From Succinivibrionaceae bacterium (GTDB lineage: Bacteria > Pseudomonadota > Gammaproteobacteria > Enterobacterales > Succinivibrionaceae): a DNA stretch of 64,000 bases. The notes below the pieces were generated by a model, which did no database searches, was not told where the DNA came from, and worked only from the letters and a program-made list of their open reading frames with translations. The stretch spans positions 2 through 64,001 of the forward strand of contig JAFURY010000049.1 of assembly GCA_017480795.1 (NCBI GenBank). The letters run 5' to 3'. Both the position numbers and the translations under genes were made by a program. Below, piece after piece: positions 1 to 13,643 of this stretch (its first letter is position 1; every line of letters begins with the position of its first letter).

Positions 1-190
1 TCGTTACTCTTCGTCACCTCCTTCAGCAGGGTAGGAGGGGCGGATGCTACGGCTCAGTTTTCCGCTCCTGTCACGCTGCCGTCATGGGTGGGGACGTTGC
101 ATTTGACACCCATCCATGGGGTGTGAATAGTAACAATTTTCCGGTTTCTGTTTGCGGATCCGGCAATTCTGACGAGCGGCAGATCCGGCG

Positions 191-1372
191 CTACCGCGTT
201 TGTATCCTTTTGCTTCCGAAATCCTCCACAAGCCTCTCTCCCGCCGCGCATGCATCCCGCTCCTCGGTGGTTTCTCTGTTGAAGCCGCCGTAGTGCTCTC
301 GCGCTTTGGCGGTTCCGGCCTTGCGCGCCATCAAATACATTTTTTCGGTGTCCGCGCCGACGGTGTAGCCCAGATTTACGGCATCCACGATATCGGCATA
401 TTCAGCGGAAGACAAATTCTGCTTTGAGCCATAATTTCGAGGCCAGCACCAGCAGAGAAAGTCGATATCCCGGTATTCCTCCTGTCGCAGGCGACAGAAA
501 TATCTGTTTTTGAGGATCATGACAAGTTTCCTGATGTTTTCAGTCCACTGGTCGAAGCCTACGCGTCGTCTCAGATGCTCGGTGTATTCGGTGGTGAAAA
601 AGATCGCTTTTCTGGTTCCTGTTTTTTCTATTCTGTATCTCAAAAAGGTTTCGCCAATGCAGATGGTCTCGTCGTCATACTGCCGGCATCCGATCTTTCC
701 GTCAAGGACCGACTGCGCCAGACGGCAATCCATATCCGAAAAAACGTTGTACGAGGAGACGAATCTGGATCCGAAAGCCCATGACAGGTCGCTGTCATCA
801 ATGACGACATAGTTCTGCACCTGGCCGGCATGCTCTTCCAGCCAGTCAAGAATGATCACCTGCTTCTCCTTCTCGATGCCTCCAAGTCCGTACTGTCGGG
901 CTTTCCTTTCGTAAAAGGAATCGCGGTCCGGTTCGCGGAAGTGGCTGCGGCAGGCATCCAGCACGCAGTCGCCCATGCCGTGAAGTTCAAAAAACAGTCT
1001 CAGGCGCTCGACGCTGCTGCAGTCGATCCAGGACGAGTGCAGCACGATGCGCGCGCCGTTGCGTCTGCAGAGCCTGGCGACACTGTCAAGTGCGTCCTCG
1101 TCCCAGTCGTAGTACGCGGCCAGAATGTCGTAGTTTTCCCCCTCGTCCACAAGCTCCCGCGGGTATTTGTTCCGAAGCATTTCCATGGTGAGCTCCTTGG
1201 AGTGCTCAAACCTTAGCTGGCTGCCATAAGGCTGCAGCACGCCGTCGATATCAAGAAAGACGATGTTCTTTTTGCCGGCGTCAGGTCTGACGCGAGATTT
1301 CTCGCAATTCAGCCCGCCTGAGCGGCGCGGTTTTTCTTTCTCTTGAGCCGGCTGTTCAAAACCCTTATGCAT
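191..1372 (-). CDS. HAD-superfamily phosphatase-like protein with unrecognised ~180-aa C-terminal domain
   Basis: ORF 191..1519. I moved the start to the ATG at 1372, which is preceded by GGAGGA. The N-terminal half has HAD motifs in order: FLDIDGVL (DxDxV), VLHSSW, VVIDDSD. The C-terminal half is not recognisable. Confidence 0.6.
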   Translation of the reverse strand: MHKGFEQPAQEKEKPRRSGGLNCEKSRVRPDAGKKNIVFLDIDGVLQPYGSQLRFEHSKELTMEMLRNKYPRELVDEGENYDILAAYYDWDEDALDSVARLCRRNGARIVLHSSWIDCSSVERLRLFFELHGMGDCVLDACRSHFREPDRDSFYERKARQYGLGGIEKEKQVIILDWLEEHAGQVQNYVVIDDSDLSWAFGSRFVSSYNVFSDMDCRLAQSVLDGKIGCRQYDDETICIGETFLRYRIEKTGTRKAIFFTTEYTEHLRRRVGFDQWTENIRKLVMILKNRYFCRLRQEEYRDIDFLCWCWPRNYGSKQNLSSAEYADIVDAVNLGYTVGADTEKMYLMARKAGTAKAREHYGGFNRETTEERDACAAGERLVEDFGSKRIQTR

Positions 1373-1985
1373 CTGTTCCTCCAAACTCCAAAATGACACG
1401 CGACTCCGACGCGCAGGCATGATCTGACGCTCCCAAGCCGCCCCGCTCGCAACGACGCGCCAATCCCGCGCAGAAACGCGACAGGCTGACCGCCAAAACG
1501 GCATACGACTCCGTCTCAAATCGCGCGCGTATCTGTTAAATATAATCCAACAGCAACCCGTTCCAGGTTAGAGAGACGTTATATCAATCAGGCGGTTTCG
1601 TTTATTTCCGCATCAGACTCGTATCCGAACCGGAAACAGAAGCGCGTTTGACTCATTATCATATCCGTTCCATCCTTTTGCAACATCTTTTTAAAAACCG
1701 TGACCATCAAGTTCAAAAACCATTCAGCACCCTTCATCGAGGATAAACATTTCAGTTTTTACAACCTGTCTGTTACCATAAATGTCATACCGTGTATCGG
1801 AATACCCAATTTACGGATATCGCGTTTCAACATCTGAATGTGCAGAAACATACACATTCAGACGCGCGGCCAGGCAACCTTGCGACAGCATGCGACTTGC
1901 CCGCGGAATTGCGGTAAAATGACGATACAACCGCATTGGCCTGATCCGGCATCACGCGCAACAAAAACGCACTGCCCTCAGGTCC

Positions 1986-4900
1986 ATGTCGTACCAGCCA
2001 GGAATCCTCATCCCCATGAACAGCCCTCAAGCTTCCATCAGCAACGATCCTGCAGCCCGCAAAACGGCGGAAAGCGCTTACATCGCCTCCCTGCTGGAGC
2101 GACTCTCAATACTCACCGAAGAAAACCTTGCTCTCAGGCGGCAGCTGCTGGATCTTGGAGCGACGCCGGCGGCGCCTCCTGTCCGGGCGCCAGGCGCGCC
2201 CCGCGCCATGCCTCCAGGATATGAGGGATATTTCCCGACAGCGATCGACTCTCCTCCGCCAGAGCCCGACTCTCCTCCGCCAGGGCTCTTCTTTACTCAG
2301 CCTCGGCTCGACTCTCCTCCGCCGTCACCGCCACCGCCGGATGAACCGCCTCCGTTTTTGCGGCGCTATAACTACGATGCGCGATCCGAAGAAACCCCCT
2401 TCGCTCCCCAACCTGCAGCCGCGCCTGTTGGGCCGGCCGCATGGCCTCGGCAAACGCCGGCCGCGCCGCCGCGGGATCCGGTCGTCCTTCGGCAGTCTCC
2501 GCCTTCCTGCCCCGGCGCCACTATCGACAGAGCAGGCGCCTTGCGACAGTTTCAGGGAGGTTTTCAGTCCGCGCCTGGTTCATTCGCCCGGCAGTCCGGG
2601 CCTGCCCGCCCCGGGACTTCTCCTGCTCCAGGCGGTTCTCAGATCACGCCGCGGCCTCAGATCCCCTGGCCGCAACAGGTTGCGCCTCAGCCTGCGGCCG
2701 CCTCTCCGCATGGCCTGACGGGCTCCGCCGGCTTCGCTCCTCACGCGCCAGCCTTCAGCAATCAAGCGCCATCCTGCACTCCTCCGGCCTCATCTTTTCC
2801 TCCTCATGCGCCAGCCTTCGCGCCATCCGCCTGCCAGCCTGCGCCGACGCCCCAGCAGCTGCAGCTGTTCAAATCGTATTTCAGCGGTCGTCAGGACGTG
2901 TTCGCCAAACGCGGAAAGACCAGATCCGGCGGCAGAGCCGGCTACTTTCCGCAGTGCAAAAACTTCTATCAGGAAGGCTGCCGCCGCAGGGAAGACTCCC
3001 GCTTTCCCTGCAGCGAATGCCCCCTGCACCAGTACCGTCCGCTGGAGGACATGTTTCTCGTCAGGCACCTGATGGGAGCAAGTCCGGATTTCACGGACGT
3101 CATCGGCATCTATCCCATGCTGCCCGACAGCACCTGCCGCTTTCTGGTGTTCGACTTCGACAATCACGAAGCCGCCTCCGGACAGGAGGCGAAAGCAAGA
3201 AAGCTCCCCGCCGCCATCAGAAGCAGGAAGGCAGCGAAAGACGCGTCCCCACCTGCCGCAGCGCAGAGCGTCCCAGACGCCAAGCCCCAGCTCCGGTCTC
3301 AGAGCAGGACGCCGCCCGATGCGGATCAGCTGCTCAGGCAGGAGGTGTCAGCCTTTCTTGCCATCTGCGACGGCGCCGGCATTCCGGTCCTTGTCGAGCG
3401 ATCCCGCTCCGGCCGGGGCTACCATGTCTGGATGTTCTTCACCGAACCCGTTCCCGCAAAACTGGCGCGACAGCTGGGACAGTCCCTCCTTTCAAGAGCC
3501 GCCGCGGAGATCTCTCTGTCAGGCTTCGCCTACTACGACCGCATGATCCCCGAGCAGGACAGCCTGCCCGCCAGAGCCAGAAAGGAAAGCATCGGCAACC
3601 TGGTGGCCCTGCCTCTGCAGGGAGCGAAAATCCCGGAGGGCAACAGCGTCTTCATCGACCGCACCTGGCATCCATATCCGGATCAGTGGCAGGCTCTTGC
3701 CTCCACCGCAAAGCTCACCCCGGGTCAGCTCTCGGCCTTCGTCGGTCTTTTTGGCCAGGCTCCCGAGCTGGGCTGCGACTTCCTGGCGCAAGAAGGGGAG
3801 CCGGCCGCAGGCCAGAGCGCGCTGCGGTTTTCTCATGAAACCGGCACCACCGCAGAAAACGGCGGCGCCGGATCCTCCCTGACGCCAGGCTCGGATCGGA
3901 CCGGATCCTCGGAAGTCCCGTCCCCGCACGCGGGAACGCGGTGCGCGCAAGGCTCCCGCCAGGAGGCCGGCCAGAGCGCAATGGGACTCAAGCCATGGCA
4001 GAAATCCCTGAAGATAGAAGCCTCGGATCTGCTGGCGCCAAAGCTGGAGATCACTCTTGCCGACGGGATCTACCTGCCGCTTGATGCCATGAAACCCCGG
4101 CTTCAGAACCGTCTCAGACGCCTTGCAGCCTACCAGAACCCCCAGTTCTACCAGAAATACAACGCAGGCTTCTCCACCAAAGGCATCCCCCGTATCGTAT
4201 ATCTGGGCTACGATCAGGACGGGTATCTGTGTCTGCCCCGGGGACTGTTGGAGCCGCTGATCCGCATTCTGCAGGATGCCGGCATCCCCTTTGCGGCGGA
4301 GGACTGCCGCGACGGGGGCAACCCGCTGGAGGTGTCCTTTTCAGGCCAGCTGCGTCCCCGGCAGCAGGAGGCGGCGGATGCCCTGCTTCGTCACGACTGC
4401 GGCATTCTTGAGGCAGCCACCGCCTTCGGCAAAACCGCGGTAGGCGCCTGGCTGATAGCAAGGCTTAAAACCTCCGCCCTGATCATCACCCACACCCGGG
4501 CGATACAGGATCAGTGGATGGAGAGTCTACGAAGATTTCTCAGCTTCGGCGGCGCGCAAGCATCCCAACCGGAGACAGCCCCCGCCGAAAGCCCAGGCGT
4601 CGCGCCTCCGGCGAACCTTGCGACACCTGAAGCCGATGCCGCATGCGATACCGAGAAAAAGCCCGGCAGGAAGGCCGCAACTGTCGCCAAAGGCCGCAGG
4701 GACGAGGATCCGAACAAGAGCATGATAGGCAGCCTCAGCGGCGCCGGACGCCGTCTGACCGGCATGGTGGACGTGGTCATGGCCCAGTCCCTGAATTCGG
4801 CGCTGGAGGAGATCCTCTCAAACGGCTACGGCCTGGTCATCGTGGACGAATGCCACCATGCCACCGCCGGAGCCATCGACGGTTTTCTGGACGTCTCCTC

Positions 4901-6287
4901 CGCCCTGCATATCTACGGACTCTCCGCCACCGCCAGGCGCAGAGATCGGCAGGAGATGCGTTTCTTCATGAGCATCGGACCGGTGCTGCACCGCTTTGGC
5001 GCTCTGGAGCAGATCAGAGGGCAGAACATTCCCCACTACGTGGTTCCCCGCTTCTGCGCCGCCTCGGCCCCGGCCGACTTCAATCCACAGAACATGTACC
5101 AGAGCCTTGCCGCCATAGAAGCGCGCAACGCCATGATCATTGCGGACGTGGAGGAATGTCTGAAGCGCCAGCGCACTCCCCTGGTTCTCACCAGGCGCCG
5201 GGAGCACGCCAAATGCCTTGCCAAAAGCCTTGAGGGCGACGATCGCAAGGTGCTGCTGATCCTCGGCGGAGCAACGGAAAAGCAGAGAAGGGAAACACGG
5301 GAAATTCTTGAAAGCGTCGCGAATACGGAAAGCGATGGCGGGAAACTCGCGCTGGTGGCTGTAGACAGCTGCATCGGGGAGGGATTCAACTTTCCGCGGC
5401 TTGACACTCTGTTTCTGACCATGCCGGTCAGCTGGTCCGGAGCCATCATCCAGTACGCGGGACGTCTGCACCGGGAGTACGAAGGCAAGCGGAACGTGAT
5501 CATCTACGATTACGTGGACATTCAGATCCCGCATCTGGAAAGAAGCTACCACCGGCGGATAAAAACCTACCGGCAGATGGGATACCGCGTCGGCGCGGGG
5601 CCCGAGACGGCGCCGACGGACATCCGAAACATCTTCGACATCGGTAGCTGCCGCAGGGCGCTGGTGCAGGATCTTGAAGAGGCGAAGGAGACGGTCCTCG
5701 TCTTCGCGCCGACGCTGGAGGATTCCGCCCGAACGCCCCATGCCGACCCGCCTCCGGCTTCCCATCCGAACGAAAAGACGCCGGAGGCGCCCGGGATCCG
5801 CGAATCCGAATGCGCAGACGGAGACTCCGCTCCGGACATGGGAAGGAATTTGCTCGCGCGCGCGGCAAAAGAGCCGGCCGCGGATGCGTCCCTGCCTGGC
5901 AAAGAACGTCCGGTCTCCAGGGATGACGAAAGCGGAAACATTCCTCCGGATCTGCTTGCGACGCTGGAAGCGATCCAAAGCCGGGGCGTGAAGGTGACCT
6001 TCATAACCTCCGAGGCTCAGAAGCGGTTGCCTGAACGCCTGCTGAAGTCGCAGGCGGCGCACAAAAGGATCAGGGGCATGCACGAAAACCTTGTCATCAT
6101 AGATCGGAGGATCCTGTGGTACGCCGGCGCGGGGTTTCTGTCAGACGGGCCGCGGGATGAAACCGCCATCAGGCTTCCCGATCCGAAATCGGCCCGGGAG
6201 ATGGAGCAGCTGCTGATGACACGCGCCTACCGGCTGCCCGCAGTTCCAGCGACAGGATCCGATATGCGTAATTTTGAACTGTTCTGA
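1986..6287 (+). CDS. Archaeo-eukaryotic primase-polymerase (AEP) / SF2 DExH helicase / PLD-like fusion protein with Pro-rich N-terminus
   Basis: 1433-aa ORF. AEP motifs: GYFPQC..C..CSEC cluster, FLVFDFDNHE (nt ~3141-3170), SRSGRGYHVWMFF (nt ~3409-3441). Helicase motifs: ATAFGKT (nt ~4414), VIVDECHH (nt ~4837), SATARR, QYAGRLHR. C-terminal MHENLVIIDRRILWYAGAGF is PLD-like. The start is uncertain: 1986 or the ATG at 2016. Confidence 0.8.
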   Translation: MSYQPGILIPMNSPQASISNDPAARKTAESAYIASLLERLSILTEENLALRRQLLDLGATPAAPPVRAPGAPRAMPPGYEGYFPTAIDSPPPEPDSPPPGLFFTQPRLDSPPPSPPPPDEPPPFLRRYNYDARSEETPFAPQPAAAPVGPAAWPRQTPAAPPRDPVVLRQSPPSCPGATIDRAGALRQFQGGFQSAPGSFARQSGPARPGTSPAPGGSQITPRPQIPWPQQVAPQPAAASPHGLTGSAGFAPHAPAFSNQAPSCTPPASSFPPHAPAFAPSACQPAPTPQQLQLFKSYFSGRQDVFAKRGKTRSGGRAGYFPQCKNFYQEGCRRREDSRFPCSECPLHQYRPLEDMFLVRHLMGASPDFTDVIGIYPMLPDSTCRFLVFDFDNHEAASGQEAKARKLPAAIRSRKAAKDASPPAAAQSVPDAKPQLRSQSRTPPDADQLLRQEVSAFLAICDGAGIPVLVERSRSGRGYHVWMFFTEPVPAKLARQLGQSLLSRAAAEISLSGFAYYDRMIPEQDSLPARARKESIGNLVALPLQGAKIPEGNSVFIDRTWHPYPDQWQALASTAKLTPGQLSAFVGLFGQAPELGCDFLAQEGEPAAGQSALRFSHETGTTAENGGAGSSLTPGSDRTGSSEVPSPHAGTRCAQGSRQEAGQSAMGLKPWQKSLKIEASDLLAPKLEITLADGIYLPLDAMKPRLQNRLRRLAAYQNPQFYQKYNAGFSTKGIPRIVYLGYDQDGYLCLPRGLLEPLIRILQDAGIPFAAEDCRDGGNPLEVSFSGQLRPRQQEAADALLRHDCGILEAATAFGKTAVGAWLIARLKTSALIITHTRAIQDQWMESLRRFLSFGGAQASQPETAPAESPGVAPPANLATPEADAACDTEKKPGRKAATVAKGRRDEDPNKSMIGSLSGAGRRLTGMVDVVMAQSLNSALEEILSNGYGLVIVDECHHATAGAIDGFLDVSSALHIYGLSATARRRDRQEMRFFMSIGPVLHRFGALEQIRGQNIPHYVVPRFCAASAPADFNPQNMYQSLAAIEARNAMIIADVEECLKRQRTPLVLTRRREHAKCLAKSLEGDDRKVLLILGGATEKQRRETREILESVANTESDGGKLALVAVDSCIGEGFNFPRLDTLFLTMPVSWSGAIIQYAGRLHREYEGKRNVIIYDYVDIQIPHLERSYHRRIKTYRQMGYRVGAGPETAPTDIRNIFDIGSCRRALVQDLEEAKETVLVFAPTLEDSARTPHADPPPASHPNEKTPEAPGIRESECADGDSAPDMGRNLLARAAKEPAADASLPGKERPVSRDDESGNIPPDLLATLEAIQSRGVKVTFITSEAQKRLPERLLKSQAAHKRIRGMHENLVIIDRRILWYAGAGFLSDGPRDETAIRLPDPKSAREMEQLLMTRAYRLPAVPATGSDMRNFELF

Positions 6288-6414
6288 CATGTTCGACTGC
6301 GCTTTCCGGGTATGTTTTCCTGCGTGAACCTTGTAAATCTGTTTTTTTATTGTAGAATTTACTTAGTAATATTACTTTGTTTACATCGTATTCAATCAAC
6401 AATGGAGCGTGTTT

Positions 6415-6678
6415 ATGAAATCCGATTTGGTTACTTGCTCATTTGTCATGGACAGAGACGTCTACAACACTTTCAAAAGCATTGTCTGCAAGCATGGCCA
6501 GAATGTGAAAGGAAACATTGTGAACTACATGAAAAGTGTTATTCAGTACGAAATCCCCAATGCGGACACTATTATGGCCATTCATGAGGTAGAAACTCTA
6601 AAAAAAGACGCAAACAAAAAAGTTTATAGTTCATTCAACGAACTTCTGGAAGATATGGAAACCGACGACGATGAATAA
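6415..6678 (+). CDS. dinJ: RelB/DinJ-family antitoxin
   Basis: Small ORF directly upstream of, and overlapping by 8 nt, a clear YafQ toxin gene. GGAG lies 7 nt before the ATG at 6415; the track start at 6409 is GTG. The tail is acidic (ETDDDE). Family call rests on context and size. Confidence 0.65.
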   Translation: MKSDLVTCSFVMDRDVYNTFKSIVCKHGQNVKGNIVNYMKSVIQYEIPNADTIMAIHEVETLKKDANKKVYSSFNELLEDMETDDDE

Positions 6679-6958
6679 CAAGCCAAAATACGGTATCATT
6701 GCGACCTCATTGTTCAAAAAGGATATTAAGTTGGCTAAAAAACGAGGGTATGACATATCTTTACTAACCTGTGTCGTTGATACTCTTGCCTATGGGCTTC
6801 CATTAAGCGAGAAGTACAAAGATCACAAATTAGTGGGTAACTATAAAGGATGTCGTGAGTGCCACATTACACCAGATTGGCTTCTAATCTATGAAATATC
6901 AAAAAACGACCTTATCCTATATCTTACGAGAACAGGCACGCACAGCGATCTTTTCTAA
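6671..6958 (+). CDS. yafQ: YafQ-family type II toxin (mRNA interferase)
   Basis: 95 aa with the family signature DHKLVGNYKGCRECHITPDWLLIY...LTRTGTHSDLF. Overlaps the upstream antitoxin gene. Confidence 0.85.
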   Translation: MNNKPKYGIIATSLFKKDIKLAKKRGYDISLLTCVVDTLAYGLPLSEKYKDHKLVGNYKGCRECHITPDWLLIYEISKNDLILYLTRTGTHSDLF

Positions 6959-7499
6959 ACTCATCTACCGTTTTTCACACTTGCGTCCATTGTGCACAGC
7001 AGTTCCCATTGCTTCATCTCTATGAAGCACGAAGTCTTTTCGGACTTTTGGTAATAGTTGGAGACAAAACAAAATCCGTTTTTGACTGACATGCATGCAG
7101 ACGGAATTCTTTGGATTTGTTGGCCTGTTGGTGTTGGCCGGATGCTGAAGATGCCGCTCTGTTGGGCGGGCATTCTCAGGAGTGGCTTTGTCGGTTTTAC
7201 GCTTGAACAAGATGCCTGAGCGCCTAGTTTCCGCGGCTGTCATCCGGCGTTCGGCCATCGTAAGTCTTGCCAACGGGGTGGGGATGATCTTCGGGTTCTT
7301 TTTGTTCCGACAGTCTACTTGTTGCTGATTTGATCCGTAGCGACAGGATCTTATTGCCACACTTTCACAATTCAAAAGGCAGCATACTCGCGCCTTTGCG
7401 CCTGGCTTCCTATCAGAGAAAGCTTAACTCGCCCCATCATGGCGCCAGTCAGATGAGCGAATATGCGTCTTGCGGTCAGAATAAGACTTTACGCAAGCG

Positions 7500-7928
7500 C
7501 TATTTCCGTCGCCTTTGCCTTCCGATTTCCATCAGATCATCGATTGCGATATCAGGATCGAAGGTGTGAAACGCCATATAGTTGCGCCTCATGGCGCTTG
7601 CCGGCGCCCATCGGTATATCTGCCTGCTTTTCTCAGAACGGGAGCATGCCCAGTACCGGTAAATATACCCAGTCCAGTACAGAACCTCCGGGCTATATAT
7701 TTCTCCCGTCGCCTGCAGCGCGATTTCATCCTGCAGTTCCTCCATAAGATACTCTTCGCCCATCCACTGAAGTTTGTTGTAGGGAGAGTCCAAATGCTCC
7801 GCAACCTCCGAATTCATGAAACCCCGGATAAAACTTTCGCTGGCGAATGCGGTGGATCGCTCAAATAATCGGCCTTGGATATCGCAAAACTTTAACTGTA
7901 AGCAGTCCATTTTACACATCTCCATCAT
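7500..7928 (-). CDS. DUF3791-like protein (C-terminal half), partner of the DUF3990 gene
   Basis: Its ATG (7926-7928) directly abuts the TAG (7929-7931) of the upstream gene. The C-terminal segment YWTGYIYRYW...YMAFHTFDPDIAIDDLMEI matches my memory of the DUF3791 pattern (..Y.aLHT.g..yivdDl..yi). The N-terminal ~65 aa are unassigned. Confidence 0.5.
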   Translation of the reverse strand: MMEMCKMDCLQLKFCDIQGRLFERSTAFASESFIRGFMNSEVAEHLDSPYNKLQWMGEEYLMEELQDEIALQATGEIYSPEVLYWTGYIYRYWACSRSEKSRQIYRWAPASAMRRNYMAFHTFDPDIAIDDLMEIGRQRRRK

Positions 7929-8789
7929 CTAGCCATTATTCAGAATCTCGTCAAAAAAGAGGCCTTCTCGCCGCCACTGTCTGCAAATTTCGTTAGCCAG
8001 GTTTACGCCTCTGACGCGCCTGGCCCCGCTTGCATCACGAAGAAACAGTCTTTCAAGACAGGATAATTCTATCTCGGCCTCTATCGCAGCATGACTGCAG
8101 GCCTTCTCGGTTTTCGCCACATACTGCTGTCCAAGTTCAAGAGCGGACAGACTCATTACAAGAGCCTTGTCGGTAATATTGCCCAAAAAGAAATTGTCCA
8201 GCACATAGAACATCCGATCATCTGCTATGCACCCGACAACCACGTCATACCCGTCGGCCAAAGTGGAGAAACGCTGGTAAAGTTTGGTGCCTTTTGCAGG
8301 ATCCAATTTACCTCTGTAATAGGCCACCAGCATTGCCCATTGGATATCAGGCGCAATTTGCATAACCCGAAGTCCCGTCAGATCCAGACGGATGACATAG
8401 AACTTGGATTGTTCAAAATCACTGATCAGAGTTAACGGCTGAGAGGGATCTGTTCCCATGTAAAAGCCTTTGCCAAAATCGCAGCGGCTGCGACTTGCGG
8501 GAGCAATCGGTCCTTTTATCCCTGATTTGGAGCCATGATATAAAACCATGCTGTCAGCCACAGGCTTTAAAGAGGACACTACGCTGTCGACCTTTGCAAG
8601 AACAAGATCTTCCAGATTTACTCCCTTGTTCCGGCAAATGTCGTAGAGCAGCATCTGGCAGGCTTTACCTGGACGGGAATGCCCGCGTTCCCACTTGTTT
8701 ACTGTTGCGACTGAGGTTCCGATCATCAGCGCAAGTTGCGTTTGGCTAATATCCAAGCGGTTTCTGATTTCATAAATATATCTTTGCAT
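7929..8789 (-). CDS. XRE-family HTH fused to a DUF3990 domain
   Basis: N-terminus ISQTQLALMIGTSVATVNKWERG is a Cro/C1-type HTH. It is followed by DUF3990 hallmarks: LYHGS, DFGKGFYMG, YDVVVGCIADDRMF, LGQQY. Start taken at ATG 8789 (MQRYIY); the ORF is open to 8900. Confidence 0.7.
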   Translation of the reverse strand: MQRYIYEIRNRLDISQTQLALMIGTSVATVNKWERGHSRPGKACQMLLYDICRNKGVNLEDLVLAKVDSVVSSLKPVADSMVLYHGSKSGIKGPIAPASRSRCDFGKGFYMGTDPSQPLTLISDFEQSKFYVIRLDLTGLRVMQIAPDIQWAMLVAYYRGKLDPAKGTKLYQRFSTLADGYDVVVGCIADDRMFYVLDNFFLGNITDKALVMSLSALELGQQYVAKTEKACSHAAIEAEIELSCLERLFLRDASGARRVRGVNLANEICRQWRREGLFFDEILNNG

Positions 8790-9058
8790 GGGAAGCCTGG
8801 GACATGAGAATTCTTGCTCAGAAATTATAGCGTCAGTTGTACCGCAGGTCGACGAAATGAACTGAACATTTTCGCCCAGACGCGAGGCGTCAACTTGCAA
8901 GCAAGCTCATAAAAGCATCGCAAGCACCTGATGGATAGGAAAACACCATTGACGGTAAAAGCCGAACGAGACCCTAGGCTGAAAAACGTCATCGCGTCGC
9001 GCAAACTATGGCTAAATGAGGAACGGAATAAAAAAAACAGAGAGAGACAGAGTCGAAA

Positions 9059-9146
9059 TGGCGGATAGGCTGAGATTCGAACTCAGGAAGGATTGCTCCT
9101 CGCCGGTTTTCAAGACCGGTGCATTCAACCGCTCTGCCACCTATCC
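9059..9146 (-). tRNA. serT: tRNA-Ser (anticodon UGA), copy 1
   Basis: The reverse complement reads GGATAGGTGGCAGAGCGGTTGAATGCACCGGTCTTGAAAACCGGCGAGGAGCAATCCTTCCTGAGTTCGAATCTCAGCCTATCCGCCA. It has a 7-bp acceptor stem, anticodon loop CTTGAAA (UGA), a long variable arm, a T-loop GTTCGAATC and an encoded CCA. It closely resembles E. coli serT as I remember it. Confidence 0.92.
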
Positions 9147-9166
9147 GCATGGAAAGTTCATGAAGA

Positions 9167-9254
9167 TGGCGGATGGACTGAGATTCGAACTCAGGAAGGA
9201 TTGCTCCTCGCCGGTTTTCAAGACCGGTGCATTCAACCGCTCTGCCACCCATCC
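9167..9254 (-). tRNA. serT: tRNA-Ser (anticodon UGA), copy 2
   Basis: Same 88-nt structure, 20 nt from copy 1. It differs only in the acceptor stem: GGATGGG/TCCATCC versus GGATAGG/CCTATCC. Confidence 0.92.
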
Positions 9255-9862
9255 GCTTTATGAAACGGATGTTATGATAACGAACAACACGTTTTTTGTA
9301 AACAGGTTTTAGCATTTGCTCTGAGAATACTCTGAGCAAACACAGATAACCGGTCGAAATTGATGATTCTATGTTCGCGCAGGATCAAAAGCAAATTACA
9401 CACAAGCCATTCGCATCACTGCTATTTGGAGTTATCTCGCAAGGAAGTTTAAATACTCCTAAAATCAGGCACTCGCAAATTTATGACTCAGGCAGAATAA
9501 CTGAATTTGTATAATTAGGAGAATTCTGGATAATTATTAAAAAAGACATTTTCAGTAGTCACTAAAAGCTGAATTTTAAAAATCAGAAGTTCACACGGAT
9601 TCTTTGAACAAATCTCTATATTAATGGATTACAGATCAACCAAGATCTGTTATAATAGAAAAAGTAGATTGAACTGCTTGAAAACCATCTTAAAATCATG
9701 GATCAGCCGAGTAGAAACAACAGTTCCTACATACCCATAGTAGTCTGTATAGTTGTAAATTCAGTTGCAGACACGTATGAAATAAAGATTAAGAATTTAG
9801 GATGCCGCCATAAATTTGTGAACTAATCTTTAAATCACGCATATGATAAAGGAAATATTTAA

Positions 9863-11083
9863 ATGGGAAAAATACTTGGTTTACGCGTGCAAAATTACGG
9901 ACCCCTAAAAGATATTAAGATGGGACATACGCATGCTGACAAAAACAGCAAGCCGCTGGATGATTTAGTCGCAATAATTGGACCAAGCGGAACAGGAAAG
10001 AGTTCGTTTGCAGATGTATTTGACTTTATTTCAGACTGTCTGAATTCAAATATTGAGACTGCTTGCGACTCTAACAATCGAGGGGGATATTCCCAACTTG
10101 TATCTCAAGGCGCCTCATGCGACATGCAATTCGAGATATGTTACAGGGAAAACAATAATTCTCAGCCAATCACATACGAACTTACAATAGGACCAGATAA
10201 CATTAACCGGCCATGCGTAATATCTGAGCGATTAAGGCAATCTGTCGATAACAGGGAATACGTTCTGACATTTTTATCTCTTGTGGATGGAAAAGGATTT
10301 GCCTATATCGGAAACGAAGGAGGTCAAGATGATGAAACAGGAAATGCGGTTGGAGAAAAAATTGAGATTGAACTTAGTGATACAAAAAAATTAGGTATTG
10401 TCACTCTTGGAGAATTTAAACAATACGAACGCATAAACAAATTTTTACGATTTTTAAAAAGTTGTTTTTTGTGTTATTTTTCTCCAGCCAGCGCTAGACA
10501 AGTTCAGACAACCGCGCCGGCTCCATATCTGAATCGCATTGGCAGCAATCTTAATAATGTTGCGCAGTATATGTATCGCGAAAATCCCAAGAAATTTGCG
10601 GAGGTATTGTCAGAAATTCAAGACAAAATTCCAAACATTACCAGGATTGCGCCAAAAGAAATGCCAAACAAACAGATTGTTTTGGAATTCTATCAGAAAG
10701 GATTTGAGAAGCCCTTCTATTCAAACCGCATGTCGGATGGCACGCTAAAACTGTTCGCATATTATATGCTTATGAACGAGAATAATCCTAGACAGCTGGT
10801 ATTTATAGAAGAACCCGAGAATGGATTATATCACCAGTACTTATCAGATTTGGCCATTGACCTTGCAAATAGTGTCGGAACTGGCTTCTCCAAACAAATT
10901 TTTGTCACCACCCACAGTCCATTTTTCGTAAACGCCTTACGTCCTGATCAAATATGGGTACTAGAAAAAGATAAGACCGGTTTTTCAGTAATTAAAAATG
11001 CAACCGATTACGATTTCGTAAAAGAAATGGTTGAAGAAGGAGCATATTTAGGAGATCTTTGGAATAGTAAATTTTTTGGGTGA
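9863..11083 (+). CDS. ABC-type (AAA_21-like) ATPase, OLD/PARIS/AbiL-class
   Basis: Walker A GPSGTGKSS, signature-like MSDGTLKLF, Walker B LVFIEEPENGLY, H-loop VTTHSPF. AAGGAAA lies upstream of the ATG. The gene is AT-rich compared with the backbone. Confidence 0.8.
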   Translation: MGKILGLRVQNYGPLKDIKMGHTHADKNSKPLDDLVAIIGPSGTGKSSFADVFDFISDCLNSNIETACDSNNRGGYSQLVSQGASCDMQFEICYRENNNSQPITYELTIGPDNINRPCVISERLRQSVDNREYVLTFLSLVDGKGFAYIGNEGGQDDETGNAVGEKIEIELSDTKKLGIVTLGEFKQYERINKFLRFLKSCFLCYFSPASARQVQTTAPAPYLNRIGSNLNNVAQYMYRENPKKFAEVLSEIQDKIPNITRIAPKEMPNKQIVLEFYQKGFEKPFYSNRMSDGTLKLFAYYMLMNENNPRQLVFIEEPENGLYHQYLSDLAIDLANSVGTGFSKQIFVTTHSPFFVNALRPDQIWVLEKDKTGFSVIKNATDYDFVKEMVEEGAYLGDLWNSKFFG

Positions 11084-11095
11084 GAAACATAAAGC

Positions 11096-11746
11096 ATGCA
11101 TTTCCAGTTTCTGGTAGAAGATGTGTCAAGTGCCGTTCTTATAAAAAAGGTTATGGACACAATCATTGGCAAACATATTAAGAACACATATAATTGCAAA
11201 TCATTTAAAGGCATAGGCCATTTTATAAAGAAAAATACGGCAAAAGAAACGCGTACAGGTAAATTGCTGAATGATTTGGCAACCTACATGAGAGGGTTCC
11301 AAAGAAGTTTGCAAGGAATAAGCGCTTCTCTTATCGTTGTTCTCGATAACGATGACAAAGATCCACAAGAATTCCAAAAATCATTACAAAATATTGCTAA
11401 GACAAATTCAATAAATATGGATTATGTTTTCTGTATAGCAGTTGAGGAAGTAGAAGCGTGGTTGTTAGGTGATGAGGCAGCTATACGGAAAGCTTATCCG
11501 GATTATAAGAAGAAGATATTACATGATTATAAACAAGACAGCATATGTGGTACATGGGAATTGTTGGCTGATGTAGTCTATAAAGGCGGTATGCAGGAAA
11601 TTCAGAAACGAAAGATGTCATATATGGAAATAGGTAAACTAAAATCCGAATGGGCAGATAAAATTAGTGACCAAATGACGTTTGAGGTTAATAAGTCTCC
11701 AAGTTTTCAGAATTTCTATAAAGCTATCTGCAATAGGGTAGAGTAG
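11096..11746 (+). CDS. DUF4276-like (TOPRIM-like) protein
   Basis: Starts 12 nt after the ATPase stop. Ordered acidic motifs FLVEDVSS, LIVVLDNDDKD and CIAVEEVEAWLLGDE match my memory of DUF4276 (..veElEAWlLaD..). Confidence 0.65.
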   Translation: MHFQFLVEDVSSAVLIKKVMDTIIGKHIKNTYNCKSFKGIGHFIKKNTAKETRTGKLLNDLATYMRGFQRSLQGISASLIVVLDNDDKDPQEFQKSLQNIAKTNSINMDYVFCIAVEEVEAWLLGDEAAIRKAYPDYKKKILHDYKQDSICGTWELLADVVYKGGMQEIQKRKMSYMEIGKLKSEWADKISDQMTFEVNKSPSFQNFYKAICNRVE

Positions 11747-12331
11747 GAAATGGAAGGCATTTTGAGCGACAAAGTTTTGTCGCAATTGAAATACCAATTA
11801 TTTAATTTGTGAATTAACTGAATAATACAAGTATAAAAATATTTTTCCATAAAACCAACTAATTTGCTGATCTGATAAATCAAAGACTCATATCTATATT
11901 CTCAACAGGAAAACTTTGATTTTGCTTTGAAAAGGGAACATCCAGGCAAGTTTGGAAAAATCATACCGTCGGTTTACGGAAATTTCGTCAGCAACTTTTC
12001 GAAAAAGCTGCTTAAATCAGGCAAAAGCAATCCTGAAAGCCAAGCACGCCGGGTACTTCCGACACCATCAGACATGCCGCTTTGCCCGGCCTGTAGCGCT
12101 TTTGGGCCATAGCAACCACGGAAATGACTCTGCTCCAGCGAACCCTGAACCTCCCGCCGCATTGCGTCGGCAACTCGCCCGCGCCAGCCGAAGCCCGCAC
12201 AGCAGACGCAAGCGGAAGGAGCAACTGCCTGCAGTATAGGGCAAAGATGTCTGACGCACCGAAGTACCTGTTCCCGATAGGCAAATCAGCCAGCCAGCCA
12301 AACCATCAGAGAAAAAAGAGGAGAAAAACGA

Positions 12332-12649
12332 ATGCTGGAAGACATACCCCGCGACAGCGAAGGCTACCTGAAGTCAGACCAGGACTGGAACCGCCAGATT
12401 GCCCAGGAGCTGGCGCAGGAGGAGGAGATAACCCTGACCGACGAGCATTGGGAACTGATAGAGTTCGTGCAAAGTTTCTACCGCGCCTACAACACCACCC
12501 CTGCCATGCGCATGCTGGTCAAGGCGGTAAAGGAGAAATACGGCGAGGAAAAGGGCAACAGCATATATCTTCACCGGCTGTTTCCCAAGGGGCCCGCCAA
12601 ACAGATCTCCAAAATAGGCGGTCTGCCTAAGCCGGTGAAATGCATATGA
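12332..12649 (+). CDS. tusE: TusE/DsrC-family sulfur relay protein
   Basis: 105 aa ending ...[10 protein letters not shown] (conserved C-terminal Cys arm). Internal motif [23 protein letters not shown] lies upstream of the ATG. Confidence 0.85.
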
Positions 12650-12665
12650 AACCGGTGAGTTTCTC

Positions 12666-13256
12666 TCAGATGTCCCTGATGAGATAAACCCAGGCCTTGA
12701 TGATGTACTGAACCATGGAGAAGATGGTAAGGATCACCGCCACGTACAGCAGCGCCACCGAAGCGTAAACCATCCAGTCGGCGGTGCGCCAGATGAGGCC
12801 GCCAATGGCCAGCATCTGAAAGGTGGTCTTCCACTTGCCGATCCACTTGACGCCAACCTCGTCCCGCTTGGCCATTTCAGCCATCCATTCTCTCAGGGCG
12901 GAAATGATGATTTCCCGGCAGATGATCACGATGCACGGCACGGTGATGAGAGCGGGATAGGAGATCAGCTCGGAGGCCACGGAGTAATTCTGGACAATCA
13001 GCACCAGAGCCGTGCAGACAATCAGCTTGTCGGCCACCGGATCAAGAAAGGCCCCGAAACGGGTGTTCTCGTTGAGACGCCGGGCGAGAAAGCCGTCGAT
13101 GAGATCGGTTATGCAGGCAATACCGAACACCAGACAGGCGTAAGGATTGGACTGATCCGGATTCTGCATGGCGTAGCACAGGATCACGAAGACCGGTATC
13201 AGGATCACCCGGAAGGTGGTGAGAATATTGGGTATATGCTTGGGTATTGCCATCAT
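12666..13256 (-). CDS. pgsA: CDP-diacylglycerol--glycerol-3-phosphate 3-phosphatidyltransferase
   Basis: NILTTFRVILIPVFV..., CDP-alcohol transferase motif DLIDGFLARR...GAFLDPVADK. Conserved uvrY-uvrC-pgsA order. Confidence 0.9.
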   Translation of the reverse strand: MMAIPKHIPNILTTFRVILIPVFVILCYAMQNPDQSNPYACLVFGIACITDLIDGFLARRLNENTRFGAFLDPVADKLIVCTALVLIVQNYSVASELISYPALITVPCIVIICREIIISALREWMAEMAKRDEVGVKWIGKWKTTFQMLAIGGLIWRTADWMVYASVALLYVAVILTIFSMVQYIIKAWVYLIRDI

Positions 13257-13643
13257 CAGAAGGCGCCTTGGCGCCGTCTCCCGCTAAAACAAATCAAACT
13301 CGCCGAAGGTTAGGAAAAGCGATCGAAAACACGATCGGAAACGCCGATCCGGCAACATGACATATCTTACCACATTCGGCCCCGCACCTATGAGAGGCAA
13401 GAACGAGAAACGCAACGCAGATATCACAACTGACGGCGGATTGGACGGTTTCAGAGACAGGAGGAGGACTGGAGGCGGCGCTCAAAAGCGCGCCTGGGGA
13501 CACGGGGTGCGAGCCTCAGAGGATCTGGAATGCCGGGCCTGTGACGAACCCGCCGTCGACTGCCTGCCGCAAGAGCCTGCTCAGGCGCCAGCCACATGCC
13601 TGCGACAACCTGCCTCAGGCATGTCCCGGCCGGCGGCCGGATC

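Follow-up and report, generated by a model that had tools for sequence, protein, structure and literature searches.

The window analysed here, a 64,000-nt stretch of contig JAFURY010000049.1 from a Succinivibrionaceae bacterium, contains an open reading frame (ORF) of 1433 aa whose predicted product joins three modules in a single polypeptide: a primase-polymerase of the AEP class, an XPB-like SF2 motor, and a PLD fold in which the catalytic residues are degenerate (Table 1). We refer to this ORF as the fusion gene. An original prediction made from the letters of the sequence had quoted the ORF and a series of motifs, all of which are found in the translation, and had called a Cys-cluster AEP, a complete SF2 helicase and a degenerate PLD-like module; these domain calls are borne out by hidden Markov model (HMM) matches, invariant residues and fold matches, with E values of 4.7e-72 for AEP-TOTE and 2.4e-15 for ResIII. 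A pseudogene reading was rejected because every family-invariant residue is kept in the 1433-aa protein; the gene is real and intact.

The N-terminal enzymatic domain matches the Pfam model PF22548 (AEP-TOTE) over model positions 2-228 of 230, with 242.8 bits against a cut-off of 27, so that the Pfam label given in the original prediction for this AEP subtype was the right one. The best PADLOC match of the protein is a CRISPR-associated PrimPol model (E 4e-58), and a profile of the family finds the CAPP structures 7nqd and 7nqf in the PDB at E 2e-17. In alignments of 28 and of 40 family members the motif residues D390, D392, H480 and D518 are invariant, as are the four cysteines C324, C332, C342 and C345. 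We assign the domain to the CAPP_A/AEP-TOTE subtype, with its predicted catalytic residues and its Cys4 cluster intact. The score against the equivalog-level model for CAPP type A1 (NCBIfam NF040561, PrimPol_Msp) is 69 bits, far below the cut-off of 200, and we regard the two as carrying a homologous domain within different protein families.

For the motor, the Pfam models ResIII and DEAD score above their curated thresholds and Helicase_C below; sequence matches in the PDB are to archaeal XPB (XPBII, 3.6e-22), 7clg (E 1e-16), UvsW and RadD. Residues GK816, DECHH 954-958, AT 981-982, R985/D987 and Q1156..R1163 (QxxGRxxR) are invariant in the same two alignments. An AlphaFold model covering aa 291-1433 (pTM 0.70, the folded domains mostly at pLDDT 80-97) has XPB/Ssl2 as its top Foldseek matches (probability 1.00), followed by UvsW and RadD, and the RRRD that follows motif III aligns to the ERDD of S. 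tokodaii StXPBII, its R985 and D987 being the family-invariant pair. By sequence, fold and RED-like motif the motor is an intact XPB-type SF2 ATPase. The Foldseek alignments to XPB/Ssl2 span 530-670 columns, beyond the two RecA lobes alone, and the confidently folded domain with an LPRG motif that precedes the motor is probably the counterpart of the XPB N-terminal domain, a correspondence proposed at the level of the model and not residue by residue. The equivalog model for the XPB repair helicase (NCBIfam NF045503) gives 33 bits against a cut-off of 610, and the motor is accordingly classed as XPB-like, not as an XPB orthologue. No SF3 (D5/P4-type) helicase or PriCT match was found in the fusion protein by Pfam, NCBIfam and PDB profile searches.

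The C-terminal 243 aa, modelled separately, match NucT (6ehi) in Foldseek at E 1.6e-7 (TM score 0.65 on the target), with further matches to Nuc (1byr), Zucchini and PLD3/4 and to the non-catalytic PLD-like domains of TrmBL2 and FAM83. The PLD-like and degenerate character of this module had thus been recognised correctly in the original prediction, but its description as a single strand was wrong: a whole PLD-fold domain is present. Pfam records PLDc_2 for most homologues, and for this protein only at E 0.013. Among 28 sequences the position of the catalytic Lys is never Lys (it is H, R, N or Q), and that of the His is H, C, R or Y; this protein has HEN..D at the HxK(x)4D site, and AGAG in place of GSxN. 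Judged from these alignments, the catalytic HxK is lost both in this protein and family-wide, and the plausible chemistries that would therefore be left are DNA synthesis and ATP-driven DNA translocation.

Table 1. Features of the fusion gene, followed by its surroundings in the window (nt, window coordinates; aa, residues of the 1433-aa translation)
Feature	Position (nt)	Strand	Residues (aa)	Basis or remark
Whole ORF: primase-polymerase, XPB-like SF2 motor and pseudo-PLD fusion	1986..6287	+	1-1433	ATG start
Putative N-terminal amphipathic/coiled-coil helix	2070..2159	+	29-58	resembles family helix by eye
Pro/Ala/Ser/Gly-rich linker	2187..2855	+	68-290	homologue alignment; insert part is aa 68-255
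AEP-TOTE primase-polymerase domain	2856..3734	+	291-583	Pfam E 4.7e-72
Cys4 cluster (C324/C332/C342/C345)	2955-3020	+	324-345	translation
FDFD (AEP motif I)	3150-3161	+	389-392	translation
40-aa insert inside AEP	3198..3317	+	405-444	absent from 27 homologues; pLDDT <50
SGRGYHVW (AEP motif II)	3408-3431	+	475-482	translation
YDRMIP (AEP motif III)	3534-3551	+		translation
51-aa Gly/Ser/Ala/Thr-rich insert, AEP-to-helicase linker	3795..3947	+	604-654	homologue alignment; pLDDT <50
Domain before motor, LPRG motif	4008..4346	+	675-787	confidently folded in AlphaFold model
SF2 ATPase/translocase core	4347..5540	+	788-1185	Pfam ResIII/DEAD/Helicase_C, PDB, Foldseek
ATAFGKT (Walker A)	4416-4436	+	811-817	translation
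34-aa Ala/Pro-rich insert, Walker A to Walker B	4548..4649	+	855-888	homologue alignment; pLDDT <50
DECHH	4845-4859	+	954-958	translation
SAT and RED-like RRRD	4923-4946	+	980-982 (SAT)	translation
QYAGRLHR (motif VI)	5451-5474	+	1156-1163	translation
PLD-fold domain without catalytic HxK (predicted)	5541..6284	+	1186-1433	Foldseek on separate model
71-aa Ala/Pro/Glu/Asp-rich insert splitting PLD fold	5718..5930	+	1245-1315	homologue alignment; pLDDT <50
HENLVIID..WYAGAG	6081-6134	+	1366-1383	translation
HAD_SAK_2 protein ('Swiss Army Knife' RNA-repair HAD), 442 aa	191..1519	-		divergent from fusion gene
Toxin-antitoxin-like overlapping pair directly 3' of fusion gene	6409..6958	+		89-aa ORF (no Pfam match) and YafQ/ParE toxin (95 aa, E 3e-33)
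136-aa ORF				between toxin-antitoxin-like pair and DUF3791/HTH-DUF3990 genes
DUF3791 (142 aa) and HTH_3-DUF3990 (323 aa), adjacent	7500-8900	-		PADLOC candidates PDC-M42B and PDC-M13B/M42A
Two tandem tRNA-Ser(TGA), 97% identical, 108 nt apart	9059-9254	-		mid low-GC island
HEC-01A/B: AAA_21/AAA_15 ATPase (406 aa) and DUF4276 (216 aa)	9863-11746	+		PADLOC E 2e-150 and 4e-94

This architecture defines a large, horizontally spread family. At E <= 1e-10 we counted 562 clusters at 90% identity, whose typical member has 950-1030 aa and the series AEP-TOTE, ResIII, PLDc_2. The GTDB species-representative collection holds at least 576 confirmed matches; the AEP domain alone gives 454 clusters at 50% identity (E <= 1e-30). 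Among the GTDB matches listed, most hosts are Lachnospiraceae and other Bacillota of gut and rumen; Bacteroidota, Akkermansia and Aeromonadales/Ruminobacter also occur, and the distribution is patchy over Bacillota, Bacteroidota, Verrucomicrobiota and Aeromonadales of the same habitats. Cultured strains with compact homologues include Oribacterium asaccharolyticum ACB7, Anaerotignum neopropionicum DSM 3847, Acetitomaculum ruminis DSM 5522 and Dorea hominis NSJ-36. The closest full-length relative of the fusion protein comes from an Aeromonadales rumen metagenome-assembled genome (MAG), and the highest identity to any other length-aligned member is ~43%; a 494-aa fragment reaches 52% across the AEP domain. 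The architecture is already present in Pfam-annotated databases, and Zabrady et al. 2021 already mention Prim-Pol plus helicase architectures ('CAPP-helicase') and CAPP homologues outside CRISPR loci; the present copy is a divergent, expanded member. A literature search found no experimental work on the primase-polymerase/SF2/PLD architecture, in line with the statement of the original prediction that no characterisation was known. Two oddities were seen among the relatives. P0121 (494 aa), the closest AEP relative in the 50% library, contains duplicated internal blocks, for example DVVGIYPLFEDGTCRFIVFDFDDHEND twice, which looks like an assembly artefact rather than biology; and P0172, P0192 and L027 (9395-12892) have an extra N-terminal globular region of ~180-280 aa before the AEP, which looks GNAT-like in L027 and P0172 and could reflect either true fusions or run-on ORF calls.

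The unusual length of the protein is due to low-complexity inserts, whose borders we set against 27 homologues: about 1000 core residues are interrupted by about 430 inserted residues at five sites, and no catalytic residue is disrupted. All four inserts within the modelled region (aa 291-1433) lie in AlphaFold segments of pLDDT below 50. Residues 60-290 are 27% Pro and 16% Ala. The 15-mer CGACTCTCCTCCGCC, three copies of which had been placed near 2245-2322, does occur exactly three times, at 2246, 2267 and 2309 (chance expectation ~0.03 copies), within an array of 21-nt tandem repeats that spans 2245-2323; another such array occupies 2732-2821, and from the arrays we infer that the inserts grew partly by 21-nt tandem duplication or slippage. 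The predicted interruptions of the AEP (given as aa ~400-450) and of the C-terminal module are present. That between Walker A and Walker B is likewise real, but it measures ~34 aa when set against the family and ~60 aa when set against XPB, not the ~75 aa that had been proposed. The notion that such inserts are unusual to this protein did not hold, since several of the same sites hold long Asn/Ser/Asp/Lys-rich inserts in P0189 (1375 aa), P0255 (1489 aa) and P0144 (1162 aa); in P0004 (1303 aa) and P0002 (1129 aa) the N-terminal linker is rich in Pro and Ser. Expansion at shared sites is therefore a family trait, and the sites are permissive. Which residues fill the inserts appears to depend on the base composition of the genome, P0144, P0189 and P0255 looking AT-rich as judged from their residues. 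For the design of constructs it is useful that the linkers of this copy could expand by ~430 disordered residues at five sites with the catalytic residues untouched.

Where translation begins bears on the longest of the linkers. An identical public protein (P0001, from a Succinivibrionaceae MAG) is annotated with 1129 aa, starting at GTG 2898 (aa 305); this annotation implies a start downstream of the Pro-rich region, which the original prediction had said would count against it, yet such a start deletes the invariant residues F299, G301, R302 and D304 together with the first 14 residues of the Pfam domain. Because it cuts off these residues, the annotated start is almost certainly wrong, and the database entry is worth correcting. 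Upstream of aa 305, in-frame ATG, GTG or TTG codons occur only at aa 1, 11, 75, 125 and 186, none falling in aa 187-304, and in-frame CTG codons occur at aa 292 and 294. The predicted start must thus lie at or before aa 186 unless one of the rare CTG codons is used, and at least ~105 low-complexity residues would therefore be translated. Either ATG 1986 or ATG 2016 is the likely start.

Homologues all begin with a helix of the form LExENxxLKxLLDxAGIxY, of which aa 29-58 is a possible counterpart, with an HMM match that is not significant. A helix HMM built without the query, P0002 and P0004 gave those two proteins 20-24 bits and the query ~0 bits; against a broader HMM from 55 sequences the query reached 5.5-6.3 bits, as the second-best locus in the six-frame window (E ~1.5). 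As a separate observation, the internal segment aa 750-772 (4233-4300), LPRGLLEPLIRILQDAGIPF, scores 8 bits against the N-terminal-helix HMM, above the N-terminus itself, and an ending '..LL..AGI.[YF]' occurs both at the N-terminus and in the aa 750-772 region of the family consensus. The stretch 1986-2186 carries an in-frame codon-usage signal of +0.40 bit/codon, a value that is low beside housekeeping genes; among non-coding windows 0-7% reach it, and among off-frame windows 0.4%. In the linker no frame shows a codon-usage signal; since the internal inserts, which must be translated, have none either, this test cannot decide whether the linker is translated. Nor is population variation informative, because the other contigs compared over the linker are 99.99-100% identical.

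An alternative in which the Pro-rich N-terminus is wholly or largely untranslated, with a start at ATG aa 75, TTG aa 125 or 186, CTG aa 292 or 294, or GTG aa 305, and in which the '290-aa N-terminus' is an ORF-calling artefact of GC-rich sequence, seems unlikely to us. It would account for the public annotation at aa 305, for the linker's missing in-frame codon signal and the long alternative-frame ORFs in the same GC-rich stretch, for the insignificant similarity of the query helix to the family helix, and for the lack of a strong Shine-Dalgarno sequence upstream of ATG 1986. It is opposed by the residues that the GTG start would delete, by the absence of canonical start codons in aa 187-304, by the in-frame signal of 1986-2186, by the equal lack of signal in inserts that are necessarily translated, and by five other members (P0002, P0004, P0144, P0189 and P0255) in which an N-terminal helix precedes a long low-complexity linker within one ORF.

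The fusion gene lies in a mosaic toxin-antitoxin/defence island beside tRNA-Ser genes. The 89-aa ORF directly downstream is presumed to encode the antitoxin of the YafQ/ParE toxin, and the DUF3791 and HTH_3-DUF3990 genes may form another candidate defence pair. The tandem tRNA-Ser genes are a likely integration hotspot, and the HEC-01A/B pair (~36% GC), situated between them and pgsA, has the look of a defence candidate gained recently; next come pgsA, uvrC and the gene of a response regulator, with uvrC 7 kb from the fusion gene. GC is 0.32-0.50 across 6.4-12 kb vs. ~0.58-0.60 elsewhere, and that of the island neighbours is 35-50%. The backbone-like GC attributed to the fusion gene in the original prediction is seen at third codon positions of the core (GC3 0.75), but overall the gene, at 0.63, is slightly above the backbone. 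In codon-usage score the fusion core reaches 0.79 bit/codon, compared with 1.05 +/- 0.13 for housekeeping genes and -0.13 to 0.68 for the island neighbours; that is, the fusion gene is nearly host-like and its neighbours are clearly foreign. Within window positions 1-13,500 we found no integrase, att-like repeat, inverted repeat or replication gene, and no CRISPR-like repeats. All 19 contigs that carry the fusion protein end ~190 bp past the HAD_SAK_2 gene, where a repeat, such as an insertion sequence (IS), is therefore probably located. The earlier conclusion of a long-resident gene without mobile context was right about the absence of an integrase within 13.5 kb but too strong otherwise, in view of the mosaic island, its neighbours of foreign GC and the relatives that reside on mobile elements.

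For the PLD-containing clade to which the fusion belongs, we clustered the neighbours at 76 GTDB loci and took two Pfam/PADLOC censuses of 150 proteins each (at positions +/-1-2 and +/-3-4). There is no conserved partner: the biggest neighbour cluster is found at 8 of the 76 loci, in variable positions, which agrees with the stand-alone gene that had been proposed. Defence-type families recur in the censuses, namely AAA_14/DUF4143 (PDC-S01), AbiEii/AbiEi, Abi_2 (AbiD), HEPN, Schlafen-like, JetA, GmrSD, ParE and Fic, along with many housekeeping genes and a few serine or tyrosine recombinases; serine recombinases flank a few Bacillota loci. Relatives are also carried by 38 IMG/VR contigs, of which 13-14 are integrative mobilizable elements with the full-length family, which look Bacteroidota-like from their Arm-type integrases and GC of 0.40-0.48. 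These share a conserved operon of a 237-aa protein (no significant Pfam match), a DUF3307 membrane protein and the fusion protein (e.g., L095 8466-12766 and ~12 similar). Further genes on them encode two tandem Arm-type integrases, HTH_17, DUF5906, AAA_25 and MobC/NikA; one element has AbiTii directly downstream of the fusion gene. The fusion gene sits apart from the DUF5906 and AAA_25 genes, which from their family names are probably the element's own replication functions. The three-gene operon occurs neither at the GTDB loci nor in the window; it is a possible clade-specific partner set. Among 50,697 phage genomes there was no full-length relative, the matches being to the helicase only, at ~23% identity.

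A sister clade on plasmids has a different context. Its members, of ~813 aa, combine AEP-TOTE (E 1e-96 to 1e-99) with the helicase and lack the PLD fold. On Sphingobium plasmid pTB1 (L093 987-9256) an operon with 4-bp overlaps encodes a 226-aa ORF, an rve/Mu-transposase-like protein, TniB and TniQ, and then an 815-aa PLD-less primase-helicase; in Sinorhizobium (L090) such a primase-helicase likewise follows TniQ. In Rhizobium (L089 7809-13769) and Sulfitobacter (L091 6806-12711) it is convergent with three tandem tyrosine recombinases, so that this layout is kept from one genus to another, and in Paraburkholderia (L092) it adjoins an integrase.

The Pfam name of the AEP raises the question of whether the fusion gene belongs to a TOTE system, the acronym standing for TPR, OB, TBP and Effector in PMC12458937, which cites Aravind, Iyer and Burroughs 2022. 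The AEP matches the model named after these systems, and UniRef names a homologue accordingly; unlike them, the fusion gene and its homologues have no adjoining TPR-OB (cold-shock-domain, CSD) and TBP genes. No TPR-OB/CSD gene was found among the window neighbours and no CSD family in the censuses (TPR_12 appeared in only 3 of 150 proteins at +/-3-4), and TBP genes were missing both from the window neighbours and from the 25 families most frequent in each census. The fusion gene is therefore not part of a TOTE system and shares only the effector-type domain with it.

Among characterised proteins, the AEP is closest in type to CAPP_A of Marinitoga piezophila (PDB 7NQD/7NQF), which is of the same subtype; CAPPs have proven DNA-dependent primase and polymerase activity, and MpCAPP assembles into homodimers (PMC8211822). 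The fusion protein differs in having no TPR or PriCT domain, in its Cys4 cluster N-terminal to motif I, in the joining of the AEP to an XPB-like motor and a pseudo-PLD domain, and in the lack of a nearby CRISPR array or cas genes (Cas families were absent from the window neighbours and from the censuses of homologue loci). A more distant kinship exists with the DRT7/UG10 defence proteins that combine reverse transcriptase (RT) and PrimPol, whose PrimPol domain is related (PADLOC RT_UG10_large, E 2.4e-6); the output of the anti-phage protein DRT7 is synthesised DNA, not cleavage (bioRxiv 10.64898/2026.04.18.719102), but its partner is a reverse transcriptase and its synthesis is protein-primed, whereas the partner in the fusion protein is a helicase.

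On the side of the motor, XPB/Ssl2 of TFIIH and archaeal XPB-Bax1 provide the best sequence and fold matches, and the RED-like R-x-D after motif III is invariant in the fusion family. XPB-Bax1 also resembles the fusion in coupling the motor with a nuclease-type module; the partner here is a fused PLD fold, predicted to lack catalytic residues, instead of the Bax1 nuclease, and the fusion carries an N-terminal AEP polymerase and is an accessory bacterial gene. A ResIII-type SF2 motor and a PLD-fold domain share one chain in the SauUSI-type Type IV enzymes as well: the fusion matches PADLOC mREase_IV at 4e-7, and the family profile matches 7clg, which we take to be SauUSI, an ATP-dependent Type IV restriction enzyme. 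SauUSI carries its PLD domain, which is catalytic, at the N-terminus and has a modification-reading domain besides; in the fusion the PLD fold is C-terminal and apparently without HxK, and its catalytic partner is a polymerase. Primase-polymerase and NTP-driven DNA motor are combined in one polypeptide, on mobile DNA, in the AEP-SF3 primase-helicases of plasmids, phages and satellites (pRN1 ORF904 and P4 alpha type), whose motor is a hexameric SF3 helicase and not XPB-type SF2; PriCT and D5_N are absent from the fusion.

We favour, with what we would call an even chance of being right, the reading that the fusion is a stand-alone, single-polypeptide conflict enzyme (anti-phage or anti-plasmid defence, or cargo that benefits its carrier) that opens DNA and primes on it, from a family spread horizontally through defence islands and the cargo regions of mobile elements. 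The XPB-like motor would translocate on duplex DNA and open or remodel it, anchored by the non-catalytic PLD fold, which may serve as anchor or dimerisation module, and perhaps also by the N-terminal helix; the exposed single strand would be handed to the fused primase-polymerase, which would prime and extend, and any effect on the target DNA would come from unscheduled synthesis or from the synthesised product, not from cleavage. By analogy the enzyme is probably dimeric. Several points weigh against this reading. Anchoring or dimerisation by the PLD fold and the opening of a bubble are analogies to XPB and to Nuc-type dimers; the defence role is drawn from gene context, from neighbour counts made without a genomic-background comparison, and many of the census neighbours are housekeeping genes; no route is established by which a system that lacks a nuclease, a toxin and an evident sensor would stop a phage; the linkage of the sister clade to transposition and recombination fits element replication at least as well; and, at the N-terminus, the query helix has no significant similarity to the family helix and the linker lacks a codon-usage signal, as do the internal inserts that are necessarily translated. 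A bolder form, which we consider doubtful, would make the protein a one-protein immune effector without an active nuclease: the motor would open the duplex of foreign DNA with no need of a free end, and the primase-polymerase would start unscheduled synthesis, blocking replication or packaging or yielding alarm or decoy DNA, and the protein may derive from a transposon-borne primase-helicase plus a dead PLD. If true, such an 'open-and-prime' defence would follow a logic different from that of restriction and of reverse-transcriptase systems.

The main rival is a replication or establishment protein of a mobile element, which would prime synthesis for an integrative element, transposon or conjugative plasmid (e.g., in replicative transposition or complementary-strand synthesis), the window copy being an element gene or a remnant; we rate this as possible but not probable. 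AEP-helicase fusions are classic replication initiators of mobile elements, and the PLD-less sister clade is tied to the Tni operon, to tyrosine recombinase trios and to an integrase. The same direction is indicated by the remark of Zabrady et al. on mobile and transposable elements, by the 13-14 IMG/VR elements with the fusion gene next to two tandem integrases, by the serine recombinases beside a few Bacillota loci, and by the common upstream end of every contig, as a repeat such as an IS would cause. Yet in the PLD-containing clade an integrase, transposase or relaxase is found at only a few of the ~76 loci and in no fixed position, the Bacteroidota-like elements already hold DUF5906 and AAA_25 genes that are probably replicative, and the motor is of the monomeric XPB type and not a hexameric SF3 or DnaB-type helicase as in known AEP replicases; the phage genomes gave no full-length relative, and neither an integrase nor an att-like repeat nor a replication gene is visible within 13.5 kb in the window. 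In Tn7-like elements the genes that follow tniQ can be cargo as well. The sister clade and the remark of Zabrady et al. give the rival a good motive, but the PLD-containing clade lends it little support. We think it very unlikely that the fusion instead serves the host in DNA repair or damage tolerance, as a primase-polymerase for repriming or gap filling that an XPB/RadD-like helicase brings to lesions or stalled forks. Its nearest characterised helicase relatives are indeed the repair helicases XPB, RadD and UvsW, PrimPols work in damage tolerance (a PrimPol-RT hybrid contributes to the oxidative-damage response according to PMC12439943), and the core codon usage is near that of the host. 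The proximity of uvrC is explained by the position of the island between the pgsA-uvrC backbone and the tRNA genes, and the patchy, habitat-linked spread across phyla, the variable gene location typical of accessory genes, the toxin-antitoxin and defence neighbours, and the lack of synteny with the closest relative, whose locus adjoins aspS, a yebC-type gene and recC, all argue against such a role.

Taken alone, this protein is what one would expect of a family that databases already list. That family, common among bacteria of the gut and rumen, bears a 'conflict system' label in Pfam. Its interest lies in the pairing of a primase-polymerase with an XPB-type motor, not a ring helicase, and in the apparent loss of nuclease activity: if the nuclease is lost, any biological effect must come from DNA synthesis or remodelling, and the mechanism of such a defence or element-maintenance activity would be of a new kind.

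Two further observations concern other loci. A Tn5053/Tn7-like transposon with a built-in primase-helicase, as the L093 and L090 loci suggest, would merit separate study. Elsewhere in the window, + strand ORFs at 31.4-34.2 kb were considered as further low-complexity proteins and rejected: with their very high first-position GC they are shadow ORFs over - strand genes, which from their translations we take to be efflux-pump genes.

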